DNA of 64,000 nt, taken from positions 576,001-640,000 of the forward strand of contig CAWEYG010000003.1 in NCBI GenBank assembly GCA_963813155.1, given 5' to 3'. Each line of letters begins with the position of its first letter. Within the stretch, counting starts at the first letter, position 1. The notes beneath the pieces are model-generated. The model made no database searches and was not told the origin of the DNA. It worked only from the letters and a program-made list of their open reading frames with translations. This DNA comes from an uncultured Acidobacteriota bacterium. GTDB lineage: Bacteria; Acidobacteriota; Thermoanaerobaculia; UBA5066; DATFVB01. The translations under genes were made by a program, and so were the position numbers. Below are positions 7,041-29,573 of the stretch, one piece after another.

Positions 7041-7085
7041 GGTGCTCCTCCTGGGAATTGATGGCGGTCGTGAAGCCTGTGTGCG

Positions 7086-7145
7086 GCCTAACGACGCGCT
7101 TCAGCGGTGAGCGAACCGACATCACGCTGTATGCCGGTGTTGCCG
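7086..7145 (-). repeat. attC site
   Basis: Minus strand CGGCAAC...CAGCG...CGCTGAAGCGCGTC-GTTAGGC. Confidence 0.8.
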
Positions 7146-7149
7146 CGGG

Positions 7150-7603
7150 ATTTCTCGGTCCCGTGTGAGGCCCGACCAGTACGGACGATCTCGTCGCGCT
7201 GGTGCGCCGATCGCACGAAGCCACCCCGACGCGGGCGGAATCGTTGGGGCGTGGGACGAACTCCGAAGCGCCGGGGTGCGACGGATTCGCGAGGAAGGCC
7301 GAACCCTCACGGGCGAGATCCGAACCGGCTTCGCAACTCGCTGAAGAGGCGACGGATGCCCGCGTCTGGTGCGGGATTTCGAAGTTCTCGTGGGCGAGCC
7401 GACGTTGACATCGGCGCGGGCAGTTCGGCCGAGCACTGCCAGCAGCGTTCTGGCGGCGGCATGCATCAGACGATCGGCGAAGGTGTCGTCCCGCGGCGCT
7501 CCGATTCGAGGCCTCGGCCGCGAACAGCCAATCGGCGGCCGATCCTGCTCCTTTCGGGCAAACCTTCGAGCACTGAGATAGCCTTTTCGAGCTTCGTGGT
7601 CAT
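7150..7603 (-). pseudogene. Degraded type II toxin-antitoxin cassette (small antitoxin ~7603-7380, RelE/ParE-like toxin ~7383-7150)
   Basis: Fragments across frames: MTTKLEKAISVLEGLPE; then KSRT, FLANPSHPG, SARVG, RAIG, DEIV.YW.GPH; extended -10 TGGTAAAAT upstream. Confidence 0.6.
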
Positions 7604-7639
7604 CGGACCTTGATTTTACCACCAGGCCAACCCTTCCGC

Positions 7640-7701
7640 GGCCAACGCCTTGCGCCTCAGCGGCGGAACGAAGCGACGTCCGCTGCACGCCGGCGTTTTA
7701 T
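7640..7701 (-). repeat. attC site
   Basis: Minus strand ATAAAAC-GCCGGCGTGCAGCGGACG...CCGCTGAGGCG...GTTGGCC. Confidence 0.8.
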
Positions 7702-8097
7702 GCGTGCGCGTATCCCCTCCGAAGAAGCACGATCACCGCCTGGCACTTCGCGCCGTGTCGCCGAGGCCGCGGGCTAACGCATGTTCGCGCGCTTTCTCAA
7801 CGCCTGCAATCAGATTTGGAACCGGAAAATCGACGTCTCGCGCCGTCTTCGTGAGGTCATAGGCGCGGTCAATCGCGAAGGTGAGGTGTTGTTCGACAGC
7901 TGCTGAGAGAGAGCCGGGCGGCCGTTAAAGGCTGCAAGCGCGGCCTGGCAAGAACCAGCGGCGAGCGCATTCGCGATAAGCCTGCGCGAGTCCTGCAAGG
8001 CCGCCTCACGGCGCTTGCCAAAAGTCATTCCAGCCGCGAAGCCAACCGCGAGAATGGTTGCCGCGAGCACGAAACGGGTAGGTCCGGTTCAACGCAC
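7702..8097 (-). pseudogene. Cassette ORF, hypothetical membrane-anchored protein, frameshifted
   Basis: LAATILAVGFAAG hydrophobic start (ORF 7810..8070); coding-like sequence continues in another frame up to the attC. Confidence 0.5.
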
Positions 8098-8158
8098 TCC
8101 CCACGATTCGGCGTCAGCGGTGGGGCGCAGCGACATCCGCTGCACGCGCATGTTATGC
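8098..8158 (-). repeat. attC site (R' core degenerate)
   Basis: Minus strand GCATAAC-ATGCGCGTGCAGCGGATG...CCGCTGACGCCGAATC-GTGGGG. Confidence 0.8.
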
Positions 8159-8520
8159 CCCCGCACTCTCACCATTCTCGATTCCCTTCAGGAGTTCCTG
8201 AGCAACGGCTCGGTCGTCGGTTGTCACCTGAATCTCGACCGGGCCGACGAATAGGGTTATAACTCAAGCCCGATTCGCCCCCACGCGAAGAAATCCTGAA
8301 GACCCTCATATTTGGCGAGGAACTGAATTCCGGCGTCGCGAAACACGGACTCGATGACCGGGAGAAGCGCAGCGTTTCCGGTCGTGTACACCGTGACCAG
8401 GTCGGGATGATGACCTTGCTCCTCCTCGGCCTCCGGCGCCCCCGTCACGAGAGGAACATGACACTCCGCGCACTCGGTAAAGCCCGGCCGGTATTCGTCG
8501 CCGCAATTCGGACAAATCAT
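8153..8520 (-). CDS. Cassette ORF: zinc-ribbon plus DUF2007-like (putative signal transducing) protein, frameshifted near 8260
   Basis: MICPNCGDEYRPGFTECAECHVPLV, SVFRDAGI, then GPVEIQV...AQELL ending at the TAA inside GCATAAC. Confidence 0.7.
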
Positions 8521-8790
8521 CTAGCCACGCGTCTTCAGGGACGCCGCTCCGCCGCCGACGAACCGACAGGCTGAATCCCGCAGCGTAAATGAGGAGCTTC
8601 GCCAGCGCTATGAACCGCGCGCCGCCGGGCGCGGAATTCCAGATCCAGGACCTCGTGTCTCCGAGCGCCAGCCACAGTCCCACCGGCGACGACAACCAGA
8701 CGGTGGAACACTGAATATGATTCCGCTAGGGCGACGGTTAGGAAGATAGACAGACACCGAGGGCGTGCAGACGCGAGGACCAGAACACAT
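8521..8790 (-). pseudogene. Cassette ORF, small membrane protein, frameshifted
   Basis: Hydrophobic segments PVGLWLALG and FIALAKLLIYAAGFSL; no clean full-length frame. Confidence 0.4.
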
Positions 8791-8795
8791 CACCT

Positions 8796-8857
8796 GCCTA
8801 GCACCGGCTTCAGCGGCAAGGCCGCAGGGCGACGTCCGCTGCAAGCCGATGTTCGGG
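8796..8857 (-). repeat. attC site
   Basis: Minus strand CCCGAAC-ATCGGCTTGCAGCGGACG...GCCGCTGAAGCCGGT-GCTAGGC. Confidence 0.85.
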
Positions 8858-9568
8858 CCTGCGGATTCTACAGTATTCCTCGATGGGCCGGCTCTCATGC
8901 CAGCCCTTTGCCTCTCCGAGCGCTCTGACGATGGGTCGAACAGCATACGAACGCTGTCCATGGGCGAGATAGACGCGAACGTCGAACCGAAGCGTTCGCA
9001 GGCCAGCGACAAGATCGTGGTACGTCGTGTCGTCGGTCGCGAAGTCGGCGTAGGCAAGCAGATTGAGGTTCATGGACGCCTCGCCGATACGTTCGAGCCT
9101 TCGATTCCACTGCGCCGGCGATCCACCCAGGGCCTTCGATTTTGCCTCTGCGCGCATCCGCGAGCGGTTTCCAGGGCGGCTTCGATTCCGGGCGCTTGCA
9201 CTACGAGGCCCCTCCGTCGCCCAGGCTCCTGGACCTCGGTAAGCTGGAACTCGAACACCTGGTCCGCTGCCTTCAGCCGGAAATCGACGTCTGTGTCGAG
9301 CGCATCGTTGACCACCGGCAAGGCCGCTCGGCGCCGAAGCCCGTGGGCGAAGAAGCAGGCCGGCAGCTTGCCACGCCATAGCTCGCCGAGCGAGCGACGG
9401 CAGCCGGTGCGCCGATGTTCGACGGCCTCGATTCATTCTCGATCCGGGGCGCCAGCTGCGCCGGCGACGAAGACGGCTCCGACGACCTATGGCCCTGCTA
9501 GCCTGGGCGAAAAGAAACGCAGGTCCAACGGCTGCGAGGGCGATCAGCGCAGAATTCAGACGTGACAT
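8858..9568 (-). pseudogene. Cassette ORF, hypothetical protein with several frameshifts
   Basis: Protein-like pieces in different frames: MSRLNSALIAL, DVDFRLK..FEFQLTEVQEPGRRRG, NLNLLAYADF. Confidence 0.5.
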
Positions 9569-9569
9569 A

Positions 9570-9785
9570 TCGAGTACCGGTTGAGCATCGAGGGGAAGAG
9601 GCGACCTACGGCAGCCTTTGAAACCAGCGAGGTCGGGACCGCGAGAATCGATGCGACCCCGTAGGACTGCGCAACCTTTCCGCGAAGTATGCCCAAGCGA
9701 CGGGAGTCACGACTCTCTGTCGGACCACAGCATATGCCCCAACCACGATGAGAAAGATCATGCCGCACCCTGGAACGTGGACGGG
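9570..9785 (-). pseudogene. Small hydrophobic cassette ORF, probably frameshifted
   Basis: MIFLIVVGAYAVV...VAWAYF segment directly after an attC. Confidence 0.35.
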
Positions 9786-9789
9786 CCGC

Positions 9790-9848
9790 CAGCAACGATT
9801 CGGCGTCCGCGTTGGTGCGCACGACATCGCTGCAAGGCGATGTTATGC
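9790..9848 (-). repeat. attC site
   Basis: Minus strand GCATAAC-ATCGCCTTGCAGCGATG...GACGCCGAATC-GTTGCTG. Confidence 0.75.
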
Positions 9849-10193
9849 CCGCGCGGTCGATGCATGCGATAGCTCCTTGCGGATGCTTTCCGCCAGACCT
9901 GGGAGGTTCTCAGCCAGGTGTTCGCGGCTGAACATGTTCCCCGCGAAGCCGGGGTGATTTGTGGCGCCGAAAATTTCCCGGCCATCGTGGGTGACCACGA
10001 ATTCCATGTCGGAATATTGAATCTCAAGCGATGAACCGCCGGATCGAAATGAGAGAGCGAAGCCGCCCTTGAACGACTCAGGCGCCACTATCTTGCGACC
10101 CGCCATCTTGAACCCGGAAGGGGCCAAAAACGCAAAGGCGCTGACCGTCTGCTCAGCAAGCTGTTCAACAGCGTTCATGATTCTCGCGGTCAT
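9843..10193 (-). CDS. Hypothetical cassette protein (116 aa)
   Basis: Intact ORF filling the cassette; ATG lies in the GTTATGA core and TAA in GCATAAC. Confidence 0.8.
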   Translation of the reverse strand: MTARIMNAVEQLAEQTVSAFAFLAPSGFKMAGRKIVAPESFKGGFALSFRSGGSSLEIQYSDMEFVVTHDGREIFGATNHPGFAGNMFSREHLAENLPGLAESIRKELSHASTARA

Positions 10194-10244
10194 AACGATT
10201 CGGCGTTAGCGGTGGTCGACATCCACTGCCCGCGCTTGTTGGGC
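10190..10244 (-). repeat. attC site
   Basis: Minus strand GCCCAAC...GCAGTGG...CCGCTAACGCCGAATC-GTTATGA. Confidence 0.8.
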
Positions 10245-10260
10245 GATGGTTGACCAACGA

Positions 10261-10482
10261 TCACCATCGACGACCACCGTACCAAAACACTTTCATCTCC
10301 CTCCGGCAATTTGGGCACTCATGGGTTTCTACTAGCCTCGCGTATGGATCGAACGCGAGGCCGGGCTTGGTTGCCTTTGAGGATTCAGGTGGCGAGTCAA
10401 GGTCCGGAAATGGCAACTGGATATTCTCATTGCACCAAGGACACACCACCGACCGCGCATCTTGCGTCTGCGCGGCCATCAT
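10261..10482 (-). CDS. Small zinc-ribbon cassette protein
   Basis: 73 aa ORF with CPWC...CPNC pairs between two attC sites. Confidence 0.7.
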   Translation of the reverse strand: MMAAQTQDARSVVCPWCNENIQLPFPDLDSPPESSKATKPGLAFDPYARLVETHECPNCRREMKVFWYGGRRW

Positions 10483-10487
10483 CTGTC

Positions 10488-10549
10488 GCCCAACGATTCG
10501 GCGTCAGCGGTGGAGCAAAGCGACACCGCGCTGCACGCGCGTGTTGGGT
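10488..10549 (-). repeat. attC site
   Basis: Canonical cores on minus strand: ACCCAAC...TGCAGCG...CGCTGACGCCGAATC-GTTGGGC. Confidence 0.9.
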
Positions 10550-10577
10550 CGTAGGGCTCGGTCGGTCCTTTGCTTCG

Positions 10578-11078
10578 TCACTGCCACTTTGAGGATTTCG
10601 GTGCGCTCAACAGTTCGTCAAGTAGAGATGCGACCGCACCCTCGATCTGCCCTTCCAGGTTGTCGGCCGGCGCGATTTCAATGATCGTGTGAGCCCAGGA
10701 AACGTCGCCGTGATCAAACTTCGCGGGGTGATGAAAGCTAGCCGCGACTTCGACAACGTATTGCGGTTTGCATACTGGATCCGGAACCTGCCTCCCCCAG
10801 AACTCGAGGAGTAGGGCGTGCCCAGCCCCCTTCCTGGCAATTATGCCGGCCGATCTGAGGCGTTTCGATACTCGGTCCTCGAGTGCGACCTTGAATCGCG
10901 CGGCCCCGGCCAAGTCGAACAAACCCGCACCAGGTGTTGGCACCATCTCGCCCGACCCACCGATAAAGACCTCAACGCTGACTTCGTCGACGTGGTAGAT
11001 CGGGTTTGATGGCCTTGCCGAGGTCGCCACTGCGGGCGTCGTCGCCAAAAGGCCAAAGAGCAGTGAAAGAGTCGTCAC
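10578..11078 (-). CDS. Hypothetical secreted cassette protein
   Basis: Signal-like TTLSLLFGLLATTPAVA followed by a globular domain; bounded by attC sites. Confidence 0.7.
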   Translation of the reverse strand: MTTLSLLFGLLATTPAVATSARPSNPIYHVDEVSVEVFIGGSGEMVPTPGAGLFDLAGAARFKVALEDRVSKRLRSAGIIARKGAGHALLLEFWGRQVPDPVCKPQYVVEVAASFHHPAKFDHGDVSWAHTIIEIAPADNLEGQIEGAVASLLDELLSAPKSSKWQ

Positions 11079-11090
11079 GATGCAGGCACG

Positions 11091-11220
11091 GCCCAACGAC
11101 CCGGCTTCCCGCCTCCGCGTGAAGCTTCGGCGCGGGTGACCAGCGGCAAGGCCGCAGGCCGAAGCCCCGGCCGAGCCGTAGCCTTGGCGAAGGCTGGTCC
11201 GCTGCAAGCCGATGTTCGGT
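11091..11220 (-). repeat. attC site expanded by two palindromic insertions
   Basis: Collinear with the attC at 8796-8857 except for inserts at ~11108-11140 and ~11159-11196. Confidence 0.85.
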
Positions 11221-11233
11221 GGCGACGCTTTCC

Positions 11234-11473
11234 TCATCTCGCTCGACCTATGATCAAGCCACGTATTCGAAATGCCAGCAACATTGCGAGCATCGGGCCG
11301 ACGAGTAGCAGCCCGGTCATTCCCCAGATCGCAGTATCAGACCCGTAAGGTCCGCAGATTCCGAGCAAGCCAGAGTTTGTTCCTCGACCTACGGCGATCA
11401 CAGCCCACACGTCTGCAACCATCACCAAAAGGAAGACCACGACCGCGATGCTGAGGGCCGCTGCTCTACGCAT
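11234..11473 (-). CDS. Two-TM small cassette protein
   Basis: 79 aa ORF with two hydrophobic helices between attC sites. Confidence 0.75.
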   Translation of the reverse strand: MRRAAALSIAVVVFLLVMVADVWAVIAVGRGTNSGLLGICGPYGSDTAIWGMTGLLLVGPMLAMLLAFRIRGLIIGRAR

Positions 11474-11489
11474 AGACGCTGCTCACGCC

Positions 11490-11565
11490 CCGGAACGACC
11501 CGGCTTCAGCGGCGGCGTGAGCCGCGGAGCGGCGAATCGACGTCCGCTGGAAGCCGATGTTAGCC
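11490..11565 (-). repeat. attC site
   Basis: Minus strand GGCTAAC-ATCGGCTTCCAGCGGACG...GCCGCTGAAGCCGGGTC-GTTCCGG. Confidence 0.88.
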
Positions 11566-11835
11566 GGCATGTGCCGACACCTTCCGTCTAACCCATCCAG
11601 CCAATCGGAACATCGCCCACTCGACCCCGATCGCCGCCGCGAGGAGGAGCGTGAGTGGTGCGAGGTATTGGACTACGAAGTTGAGAGCCTGGAAGCCGGA
11701 ACCGCGGGTGTAGAGCTCCGGTGAATCAGCCGCAATCTTGACCAGATGCCGCCACAAGCCGAAACAGAGGAACGCCCAAGCGACCACGGTAACCGTGACG
11801 ACAGACGCTAAGGCGAGCCGCGTCCGACGCATCAT
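11560..11835 (-). CDS. Two-TM small cassette protein
   Basis: MMRRTRLALASVV... two hydrophobic helices; stop TAA inside GGCTAAC. Confidence 0.75.
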   Translation of the reverse strand: MMRRTRLALASVVTVTVVAWAFLCFGLWRHLVKIAADSPELYTRGSGFQALNFVVQYLAPLTLLLAAAIGVEWAMFRLAGWVRRKVSAHAG

Positions 11836-11842
11836 TTCAGCC

Positions 11843-11910
11843 GCCCAACGACCGGAGTTCAGCGGCGGCGAGCCAGCGGCTCGACATCCCACTGCAACGA
11901 GAAGTCAAGT
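11843..11910 (-). repeat. attC site (R'' degenerate)
   Basis: Minus strand ACTTGAC-TTCTCGTTGCAGTGG...GCCGCTGAACTCCGGTC-GTTGGGC. Confidence 0.7.
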
Positions 11911-11918
11911 GCGTGGCG

Positions 11919-28679: not shown

Positions 28680-29102
28680 ATGGACTTAGGCGCAGACAAG
28701 GGGAACATCCGAAGCGAGATCAACGTCACGCCGCTCGTGGACGTCTGCCTCGTGCTCCTCATCATCTTCATGGTCGTTACCCCCATGCTCGGCACGGGCG
28801 ACATCAGCCTTCCCCGAACGAGCCAGCCGTCCAAGAAACCGGAAGACCAGAAGCAGCTGGTCCTGACCATCAAGTACGCCAATCCTCCGATGTACGGCGT
28901 CGCCGAGAATCAATATTCCCGCGCCGACTTCGAGAAGGCCGTCGACGAGGCCTACCAGCGAAACTCGACGCGACCCGTCGTGATCAAGGCCGACTCCCGG
29001 CTCACATGGAAAGACGTGCGAGACGCGATGCGGGTCGCGAAAGATGCCGGCTTCGACAACGTCGGCCTCATCACGGACAAAAAGCAAAAGGGCGCCTCGT
29101 AG
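28680..29102 (+). CDS. exbD: ExbD/TolR family protein
   Basis: EINVTPLVDVCLVLLIIFMV, IKAD. Confidence 0.93.
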   Translation: MDLGADKGNIRSEINVTPLVDVCLVLLIIFMVVTPMLGTGDISLPRTSQPSKKPEDQKQLVLTIKYANPPMYGVAENQYSRADFEKAVDEAYQRNSTRPVVIKADSRLTWKDVRDAMRVAKDAGFDNVGLITDKKQKGAS

Positions 29103-29132: not shown

Positions 29133-29573
29133 ATGGAAATGGGAAAAGTCGGCGCCGTTCGCAGCGAGATCAACGTCACTCCGCTCGTGGACGTTTGTCT
29201 CGTGCTTCTCATCATCTTCATCGTCATCCAGCCGATGACGCAGATGGGCTACGACACCAACATTCCCCCGAAAGCCCCTCCGACGGAGACTCCCCAGCAG
29301 CCGCCCCCGGACCAGCTCGTGGTGTCTTACACGGCGGACAGAAAGATTTTCCTGAACAAGCAGGAAATGAGCCAGCAGGCGCTCGTCACCCAGCTGGGCC
29401 AGATCCTGGAGAACCGCCACGACAAGGTCGTGTTCTTCTCGGTCGACGACCACGCCAATTACGGCGAAACGATGAACGTCATGGACGCCGTCCGCAACGC
29501 CGGGGGCTACAAAGAAAGCGCGTCGGAGGGCGTCAAGATCGGGATCGTGATGGAGCCGGTGCCCGTTCGCTGA
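29133..29573 (+). CDS. exbD: ExbD/TolR family protein (second copy)
   Basis: EINVTPLVDVCLVLLIIFIV. Confidence 0.92.
   Translation: MEMGKVGAVRSEINVTPLVDVCLVLLIIFIVIQPMTQMGYDTNIPPKAPPTETPQQPPPDQLVVSYTADRKIFLNKQEMSQQALVTQLGQILENRHDKVVFFSVDDHANYGETMNVMDAVRNAGGYKESASEGVKIGIVMEPVPVR

Follow-up and report, generated by a model that had tools for sequence, protein, structure and literature searches.

The question raised by this locus is why one attC recombination site in a cluster of integron cassettes should measure 130 nucleotides (nt) when the sister palindromes measure 61-82 nt. The site occupies positions 11091-11220, on the minus strand, of a 64,000-nt stretch of DNA from an uncultured Acidobacteriota bacterium, called the window below (G000:C3:576001-640000, that is, part of contig C3 of genome G000). 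The genome is 3.8 Mb in size, 66% G+C and 90.8% complete, and occurs in soil metagenome runs. The explanation favoured here, and thought probable, is that an ordinary type-B attC of a chromosomal array took in two copies of a very small, non-coding hairpin repeat similar to repetitive extragenic palindromic (REP) elements, that an enzyme acting in trans placed such units at two preferred helix-junction positions of attC hairpins, and that the copies in the window are probably old and inherited.

The long site has the sequence hallmarks of an attC, namely GCCCAAC...GTTCGGT at its ends and the stem arms CGGCTT/AAGCCG and CAGCGG/CCGCTG. All of the cassette-filling open reading frames (ORFs) lie on the minus strand, so the window's plus strand serves as the bottom (recombining) strand and its minus strand as the top; the parts of the site are given here in plus-strand order. 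GCCCAAC (11091-11097) is the complement of the top-strand R' box GTTGGGC and marks the cassette boundary, and CGGCTT (11102-11107) is the 5' arm of the spacer stem, with AAGCCG (11206-11211) as its partner. The first insert, ins1, follows at 11108-11140 and is a diverged, minus-strand copy of a 33-nt hairpin repeat unit. CAGCGG (11141-11146) is the 5' arm of the L box and is partnered by CCGCTG (11199-11204). Next comes the native type-B variable loop CAAGGCCGCAGGCCGAAG (11147-11164), which is identical in uninterrupted type-B sites and ends in GGCCGAAG (11157-11164), and then the second insert, ins2, a plus-strand 33-nt unit with the core GCCGTAGCCTTGGCGAAGGC, at 11165-11197. The 3' arm of the bottom strand (11198-11220) consists of TCCGCTG (11198-11204), an extra C, AAGCCG, AT and GTTCGGT (11214-11220).

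A preliminary description of the locus had read the long site as the attC at 8796-8857 with two extra blocks. The comparator, an uninterrupted type-B attC on the minus strand at 8792-8861, proves to be a fair one, and the two sites are collinear except for two clean 33-nt blocks. Better comparators are the genome's own 70-nt type-B attCs, such as G000:C3:299359-299428 and 183927-183996, against which both flanks and the central 24 nt align gap-free and the two blocks stand out as clean additions. About 10 uninterrupted type-B attCs of G000 are collinear with the flanks and centre of the long site. Each insert boundary is ambiguous by 1 nt; ins1 lies between CGGCTT and CAGCGG, and ins2 between GGCCGAAG and TCCGCTG. 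The first block had been placed correctly at 11108-11140, and the second, put at about 11159-11196, is moved to 11165-11197 because GGCCGAAG is native attC sequence. The statement that one block splits the L-box arm was roughly right, in that ins1 interrupts the bottom strand's 5' arm after the spacer stem CGGCTT and before the L-box arm CAGCGG. In type-B sites CCGCTG-C-AAGCCG faces the contiguous CGGCTT-CAGCGG, and in the long site it is ins1 that faces the extra C. The identity and spacing of such extrahelical bases decide excision efficiency, according to one report (PMC3053210).

Direct similarity between the two blocks is modest. The local alignment of ins1 with the reverse complement of ins2 scores 11, a value reached by 1.4% of 20,000 random 33-mers of the genome, and this weak similarity, taken alone, agrees with chance resemblance in a genome of 66% G+C, the blocks being a long, idiosyncratic attC loop. 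Such a reading is extremely improbable, because it is contradicted by model and pattern searches with controls and by homologous blocks at identical junctions in four genomes and two metagenome contigs. A covariance model, R2, was made from 59 aligned units, all from other genomes and with the attC-borne unit of genome G004, in locus L183, left out. R2 places ins2 on the plus strand at 36.3 bits (E 3e-4 in the whole genome, where it is the 10th best match, and E 1.3e-6 in a 15-kb set of attC loci) and ins1 on the minus strand at 21.2 bits (E 0.004 in the 15-kb set), in agreement with the earlier remark that the two blocks share a core in opposite orientations. The homologues of ins1 at the same position in two other attCs of the genome, C9:13439-13461 and C2:498075-498097, score 23.8 and 19.2 bits, also on the minus strand. 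A sequence-only profile made from a set of exact 22-mer matches finds ins2 (E 3.4e-4) and misses ins1.

The unit is about 30-34 nt long and consists of a leader that varies (often CTTGTCC or GCCTGCCGC), followed by GCCGWAGC, by a short stem-loop that also varies, and by GCGAAGGCGGA. Its fold has an outer stem, GCC/GGC, a symmetric 3x3 purine loop in which GWA is opposite GAA, GC/GC and an inner variable stem-loop. Pairs covary in the 59-unit alignment at columns 17-30 (CG 30, UA 21, GC 3) and 6-41 (CG 22, UA 12, GC 2), with a covariation score that none of 500 shuffles matched; the invariant pairs are invariant through the way in which the sequences were chosen. A strict pattern, GCCGWAGC-N2-22-GCGAAGGCGG, was used to count copies, with the pattern read backwards as control. 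There are 12 copies in G000, 3 in G001, 6 in the unpublished G002, 116 in G003, 47 in G004, 4 in G005 and 30 in G006, which is 51% complete. The control stays at 0-2 in all seven and never exceeds 4 in a genome of the order. Elsewhere in the order (121 genomes searched) copies mostly number 0-3, with G034 (15), G104 (7) and G092 (5) as exceptions. The core of ins2 occurs outside attCs in G000 at C2:115538, 355945, 737730 and 737869 and at C3:141451 and 563586. The inserts are therefore not unique to the site, and the proposal of REP-like micro-elements was sound to the extent that both blocks belong, in opposite orientations, to a real dispersed family of small palindromes.

The family extends far beyond these relatives. 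The exact 22-mer core GCCGWAGCCTYGGCGAAGGCGG is found, with unrelated flanks, in at least 121 stretches of a collection of species-representative genomes, under record titles that include Acidobacteriota, Verrucomicrobia, Planctomycetota, Bradyrhizobium (including a complete genome), Bacteroidetes, Patescibacteria, Elusimicrobia, Myxococcaceae and others. Units occur singly, as inverted doublets, in tandem (L177, L037), nested in one another (L106, L041, L218, L221) and nested in other palindromic repeats. Given the dispersal, the very uneven copy number among close relatives, the nesting, the tandems and the inverted doublets, the family behaves like REP, REPIN or other miniature mobile DNA. 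Judged by eye from the flanks, the units may lie mostly between genes. The Rfam database gives no family at gathering score in the window, and nothing meaningful at relaxed thresholds on the long site or on seven unit-bearing loci. The literature search, which covered neither subscription journals nor supplements, matched the unit core to one unrelated primer only.

The same properties bear on a second alternative, in which the hairpin is not mobile DNA but a functional motif, such as a transcript-level element (a terminator, an RNA stabiliser or a protein-binding hairpin with the GWA/GAA loop) or a DNA-binding site, that modulates cassette expression and was spread by recombination, gene conversion or repeated selection. 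The strict conservation of two stems and the 3x3 purine loop, the covariation of inner and outer stems, the identity of a 22-mer across phyla and the presence of units inside cassette arrays, a transcribed type of region, are what such a motif would lead one to expect. However, no Rfam family matches, copy number runs from 3 to 116 among relatives of one family, and both strands are used about equally (66/50, 23/24 and 15/15). Moreover, selfish repeats typically show such nesting, tandem arrays and inverted doublets, and ins1 and ins2 are oppositely oriented, so no more than one of them could be active in a cassette transcript of a given sense. A functional motif is therefore considered improbable.

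Several compound arrangements were seen around dispersed units. In G004 a composite repeat, GTCATCC[T/C]GAGGAGCGA followed by the unit and AGCGACGA[A/G]GGATC, occurs at least 8 times (L182, L184-L187, L190, L193, L197), the unit sitting in the loop of a second palindromic repeat family. Bradyrhizobium records have the unit inside GTCATTGCGAGCG[A/T]AGCGA...AGCAATCC (L100, L121, L143, L165, L168, L173). At G000:C2:737722-737893 two units 139 nt apart lie inside a longer direct repeat (GCGGAGACGCGCGACC-unit-AGCGC(C)AGCGGAACG.AGTGGAGCGAAAT), and at G000:C1:385556-385591 a dispersed unit of 44.3 bits adjoins the apparent 5' end of a tRNA gene (GGGGCCGTAGCTCAGTTGGG). A census of 13-mers in G000 shows more abundant families, one around CGCGAGCGGCAAAAGGG present about 46-48 times and others, apparently tiling GATCCCGAGGGAAAGCGAACTGCGGCCGAGGGTCGA, about 28-42 times each; these could be repeats of the CRISPR (clustered regularly interspaced short palindromic repeats) type or another REP family.

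Recurrence of the inserts in other attCs was examined by searching 60 relatives with the 130-nt site and reading the matches. Genome G002, which underlies loci L034, L039 and L041, the G002:C364 junction and the G002 counts of units and of Y1 transposase genes, is unpublished, as is G008, which underlies one Y1 count. Two further double-insert sites exist in G000, C9:13422-13521 (83% identical to the long site) and C2:498057-498188 (73%), and a decayed site, C3:320592-320649, has the ins2 block only. Both types of unit occur together in L036 (G006) and L041 (G002) as well as in the three G000 sites; ins2-type units alone occur in L034 (G002) and in L035 and L038 (G001), and an ins1-type unit alone in L042 (G004). 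L041 is an attC with a type-A-like loop, in which a second unit is nested inside the ins2-type unit, and L037 (G006) has two ins2-type units in tandem. Further ins2-type junctions are found in L039 (G002), L040 (G004), G002:C364 and G005:C164.

The two positions are constant. The ins1-type junction is GGCTT/CAGCGG (GAGTT in the C2 site) in six of six attCs from four genomes, with the unit on the strand opposite to that of ins2-type units, and the ins2-type units abut TCCGCTG in every case. A metagenome scan for the ins1/attC junction gave 99 stretches, among which invaded attCs, judged by eye, are found only in L311 and L312 (three sites), the others being chance matches; L312 has two double-insert attCs on one contig. 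Within G000 the attCs make up about 0.07% of the genome and hold 5-7 of the approximately 22 recognisable units. Many junctions fit GA^AG, as in the attC top strand (CGCTGA^AGCCGG), other palindromes (GCGA^AGC) and nested units (GCCGA^AGCC). No single target rule for insertion was obtained, given that the ins2-type junctions do not fit GA^AG. As the loci are read here, the feature common to the positions would be structural, each unit being at a break in a helix, directly 5' of a stem's descending strand. The places where units sit thus make it likely that hairpins are targeted.

Repeated arrival at one position is suggested by the units themselves. The loops of ins1-type units vary: TTCAC and TTCGT in G000, TTTAT in G002, TTCAC and TTTAC in L312, CTTGC in L311, CTTGT in G006 and TCGGAGA in G004. 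The leaders differ among sites too. The attC-borne unit of G004 scores 40.3 bits with R2 and has a 25-nt core identical to two dispersed copies in the same genome. The varied leaders and loops and the identity of the G004 core speak for several independent arrivals at the same position.

The consequence of the two inserts for the attC can be approached by folding. DNA energy parameters were used to compute the probability that the bottom strand forms both of the 6-bp stems, CGGCTT/AAGCCG and CAGCGG/CCGCTG. The probability is 0.79-0.84 for five natural type-B sites, 0.43 and 0.51 for two natural 82-nt sites, and 0.59 and 0.66 for sites with ins2-type units only. For the long site as found it is 0.0057, and it becomes 0.80 when ins1 is removed in silico, 0.17 when ins2 is removed and 0.88 when both are removed. 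In the model ins1 is thus the cause of the predicted loss of fold. The minimum-energy fold pairs GCTTC of the CGGCTT arm with GAAGC inside ins1. A single long, REPIN-like hairpin formed by ins1 and ins2 together was considered and is absent from minimum-energy folds.

The favoured explanation would accommodate these predictions as follows. ins2, which sits in the variable loop and adjoins the L-box arm TCCGCTG on its 5' side, would merely enlarge a loop in which attCs tolerate additions, whereas ins1 would turn the stem into a three-way junction. With GAAGC of ins1 paired to GCTTC of the CGGCTT arm, the bottom strand would rarely form the stems that the integrase needs. Loss of recombination, or locking of the cassette as the preliminary description had it, is a prediction of the folding model; it is strong for the long site (0.006 versus about 0.8) but weak for two other sites with an ins1-type unit.

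The most serious alternative is that the long form is an inherited attC subtype, that is, a branched 130-nt architecture that arose once, was passed to new cassettes and was kept because it still works, or works in another way, in recombination or cassette expression; no insertion would have taken place at this locus, and the recurrence in relatives would stem from descent shared by the attCs. Its evidence, and several results from the search for a mover, weigh against the favoured explanation and are taken together here. The three long sites of G000 have the same unit variant (TTCAC or TTCGT loop) behind different ORFs, which fits a single origin, and the 5-nt loop common to most ins1-type units may mean common descent and not repeated insertion. 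Both inserts are present, with 8 differences from the long site, on a 135-nt contig of a soil run from a different study, and the two double-insert attCs on contig L312 also suit descent. In addition, the attC-borne units of G000 are more diverged (19-36 bits) than the nine best dispersed copies (39-46 bits). However, single-insert forms of either kind exist, and the attCs that hold ins1-type units have three different central loops (type B, type-A-like in L041, and a third common to L042 and L036). The G004 unit matches the family almost perfectly and has the same core as dispersed G004 copies, and the attC-borne leaders and loops match different dispersed subfamilies, which is not the pattern of random drift. 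Inheritance also still requires at least one original insertion of a dispersed repeat. An inherited subtype as the whole explanation is therefore held to be unlikely, with the caution that part of the recurrence may be inheritance of an already invaded attC.

ins1 itself is a weak member of the family, with an E of about 1 in the whole genome, and some of the nested G004 units belong to a single composite repeat, which may have been amplified as one piece. The drop in stem probability elsewhere is only 2.5-3 fold, L036 having 0.20 versus 0.51 and L042 0.27 versus 0.83 without the ins1-type block. Moreover, at least three different cassettes are followed by related long attCs, and a near-identical long site is present in a soil run of another study, which is a poor fit to a dead site. 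Direct signs of movement were sought as well. No target duplication is visible when the junctions are set against empty type-B sites, no cassette was met in both an empty and a filled state, and excised forms of the long-site locus are absent from the contigs of four soil runs. Homologues of the cassette's 79-amino-acid (aa) protein among 120 relatives of the order come to one weak match (E 3e-4), and without a clear cassette homologue no filled-versus-empty comparison of the same cassette is possible. Joints in soil contigs that skip 33 nt (11163 to 11197) have different flanks, so they come from other type-B attCs.

A linked nuclease or transposase, for which a search had been proposed, was not found. 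The Y1 transposase domain (PF01797), to whose family the REP-associated transposases belong, has no match in G000, G001, G002 or G005, whereas G003 and G004 have 1 match each and G006 has 2, and these are the three unit-rich genomes of the family. This is suggestive, although the genomes are few and are kin to one another, and 86 of the 121 genomes of the order carry a Y1 gene, mostly with hardly any units. Among the four Y1 loci of family f1 that were examined, units adjoin the gene only in G003 (two within 250 nt upstream); the G004 and G006 genes have none beside them. The G003 gene has 28-nt inverted repeats of its own at either end, unrelated to the unit (L055:1433-1460 and 2410-2438, beginning GGGGTCAGATCTG), an arrangement that resembles the 'TIRYT' type described in PMC3733652. 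Three GACCCCGAGGCGCGG repeats were seen on the downstream side of the same gene. Tested as the mover by presence and absence and by adjacency, the Y1 transposase showed no consistent link.

The favoured explanation, two old copies of a REP-like unit in a type-B attC, remains the probable one after these points. The window copies are diverged and common to three attCs, and would probably have come with the attC lineage; because one unit variant is common to the three double-insert attCs of G000, the insertion in the window is probably inherited and not recent. The enzyme that placed the units would not be encoded in today's G000. A broader version, in which hairpin elements of about 30 nt that nest in themselves and span phyla integrate at helix junctions of folded single-stranded DNA, including two fixed attC positions, with a Y1 transposase carrying a DnaA-type helix-turn-helix as the possible mover, is possible but rather doubtful. 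Within this bacterial family the Y1 gene is found only in the three unit-rich genomes; the Y1 proteins of G003 and G004 are 314-315 aa long, and the G003 protein, the one scanned, has Y1_Tnp followed by the DnaA-type helix-turn-helix.

Known systems resemble parts of this case. REP and REPIN elements are small hairpin repeats linked to REP-associated tyrosine transposases (RAYT, also TnpA-REP) that mobilise them (PMC3733652, PMC3116915, PMC8266576), and REPs inside other small palindromes are on record, as with GTAG-23 of T. roseum (PMC3733652). They share with the present family short (20-40 nt), dispersed palindromic hairpins of very uneven abundance among related strains, the occurrence of singlets, inverted doublets and clusters, and units within other palindromes. 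GTAG is found in about half of the present units (58 of 124 cross-phylum units, with GAAG in 66). Unlike the conserved GTAG (GTRG) at the 5' end of a REP hairpin, however, the GTAG or GAAG of the present family lies in the internal loop between two stems. Furthermore, no cognate RAYT flanked by the present repeat was found in G000 or at the four Y1 loci, the exact core spans phyla where REPs are usually lineage-specific, and the hosts are integron attC sites.

Two kinds of larger element are attracted to attCs. The insertion sequences of the IS1111-attC group (ISKpn4, ISPst6) act via a guide RNA and select a specific position in the potentially folded attC (PMC11187229). They too are mobile DNA at a specific position of cassette attC sites, but they measure kilobases and carry genes for a DEDD transposase and a guide RNA, whereas the present units are 33 nt long, non-coding and at two other attC positions. 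Group IIC-attC introns are retroelements that insert into cassette attC sites (PMC3001079) and are likewise hairpin-seeking mobile DNA in integrons. They have a ribozyme and a reverse transcriptase, are about 2 kb long and take one orientation, whereas the present units have no coding capacity.

Miniature inverted-repeat transposable elements also differ, in that the whole of the present unit is one hairpin, with no pattern of terminal inverted repeats and target-site duplication and no parent insertion sequence seen. The variable terminal structure gives natural attCs very different lengths. ins2 does lie in that structure, and 82-nt sites are found in G000 as well, but ins1 falls outside that loop, where the spacer stem meets the L box. 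Elhai et al. (2008, Genome Res 18:1484) reportedly described dispersed repeats of about 20-30 nt in cyanobacteria that enter one another as well as hairpins and for which a transposase is not known. Those repeats have another sequence, belong to another phylum and are not known to be linked to integrons. In short, the present case works like REP-like DNA and like attC-seeking elements and has the defining features of none, given that coding capacity, a terminal GTAG, a cognate RAYT and a target duplication are lacking. The literature searched, within the same limits as for the unit core, yielded no paper on REP-like or miniature elements in attC sites.

The setting of the long site is a cluster of attCs at 7084-11914, on the minus strand, that lacks an integrase. 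From about 7080 to 11915 the window holds a row of short minus-strand ORFs, each followed by an imperfect palindrome of the form ...AAC-GA-(C)CGGCK-TCAGCGG-loop-CCGCTG-CA-MGCCG-AT-GTT..., and these palindromes are integron attC sites. Seven sister palindromes gave a consensus hairpin with covariation (compensatory changes) at 2 pairs, and a covariance model, R1, was made from them. R1 matches in the cluster lie at 7084-7149, 7638-7705, 8096-8162, 8792-8861, 9788-9852, 10188-10248, 10486-10553, 11488-11569 and 11841-11914, with the long site in addition. The ORFs occupy the spaces between sites, for example ORF 10261-10482 between the attCs 10188-10248 and 10486-10553. The long site begins 14 nt past the stop of ORF 11234-11473 (minus strand; hydrophobic 79-aa product without a Pfam match) and is the attC of that cassette. 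The ORF of the next cassette, downstream on the minus strand (10578-11057), has no Pfam match. Owing to the inserts, R1 recognises just the right third of the long site (11164-11224, 20 bits).

In the whole genome R1 has 41 matches at E up to 1, of which 34 are at E below 0.001. They fall into one array beside an integron-integrase gene (G000:C3:295169-304000) and four groups without an adjoining integrase: C3:144.7-145.3 kb, C3:183.9-187.4 kb, C2:497.4-498.2 kb and the cluster in the window. Two attC types dominate, a 67-nt type A with loop TGGAGCGAAGCGACA and the 70-nt type B. The sole integron-integrase match of G000, C3:295169-296117, is about 290 kb from the window cluster. It runs in the same direction as its cassettes, the R1 matches at 296.7-304 kb being on the strand opposite to those in the window, and its match is divided between two reading frames (model positions 1-192 and 186-315). 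The split is a frameshift or an assembly error; if the frameshift is real, all of the G000 attCs may be idle now. A unit-like sequence of 31.8 bits lies just upstream of the integrase, at 294971-295039. In soil runs X3 and X4, from another study, a cassette about 98% identical to the downstream cassette (window 10702-11099) continues through the R-box AACGA, the match ending at 11099, into a type-A attC in place of the long type-B site. The same downstream cassette thus has different neighbours in nature, as expected of integrase-made junctions. Elsewhere in the window, a 66-nt direct repeat at 28710-28775 and 29160-29225 (91% identical, 450 nt apart) may lie in tandem paralogous genes.

The repeat has a significance of its own, given that its 22-mer reaches from Acidobacteriota to Bradyrhizobium and Patescibacteria with no Rfam family, and it merits a separate description. 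For annotation, the practical consequence is that attC detectors miss or shorten invaded sites, as R1 did in seeing the right third only. For integrons, attC sites are the moving joints, and only kilobase elements, the IS1111-attC insertion sequences and group IIC-attC introns, have so far been known to seek them. On the broader version described above, which is rather doubtful, the units would make up a third group of attC-seeking mobile DNA, much smaller than the other two, and could switch cassettes from mobile to fixed by disrupting attC folding. A 33-nt hairpin that takes up fixed attC positions would mean that the folded attC attracts even the smallest selfish DNA, and would provide a natural route to cassette fixation in chromosomal arrays and in clusters without an integrase.

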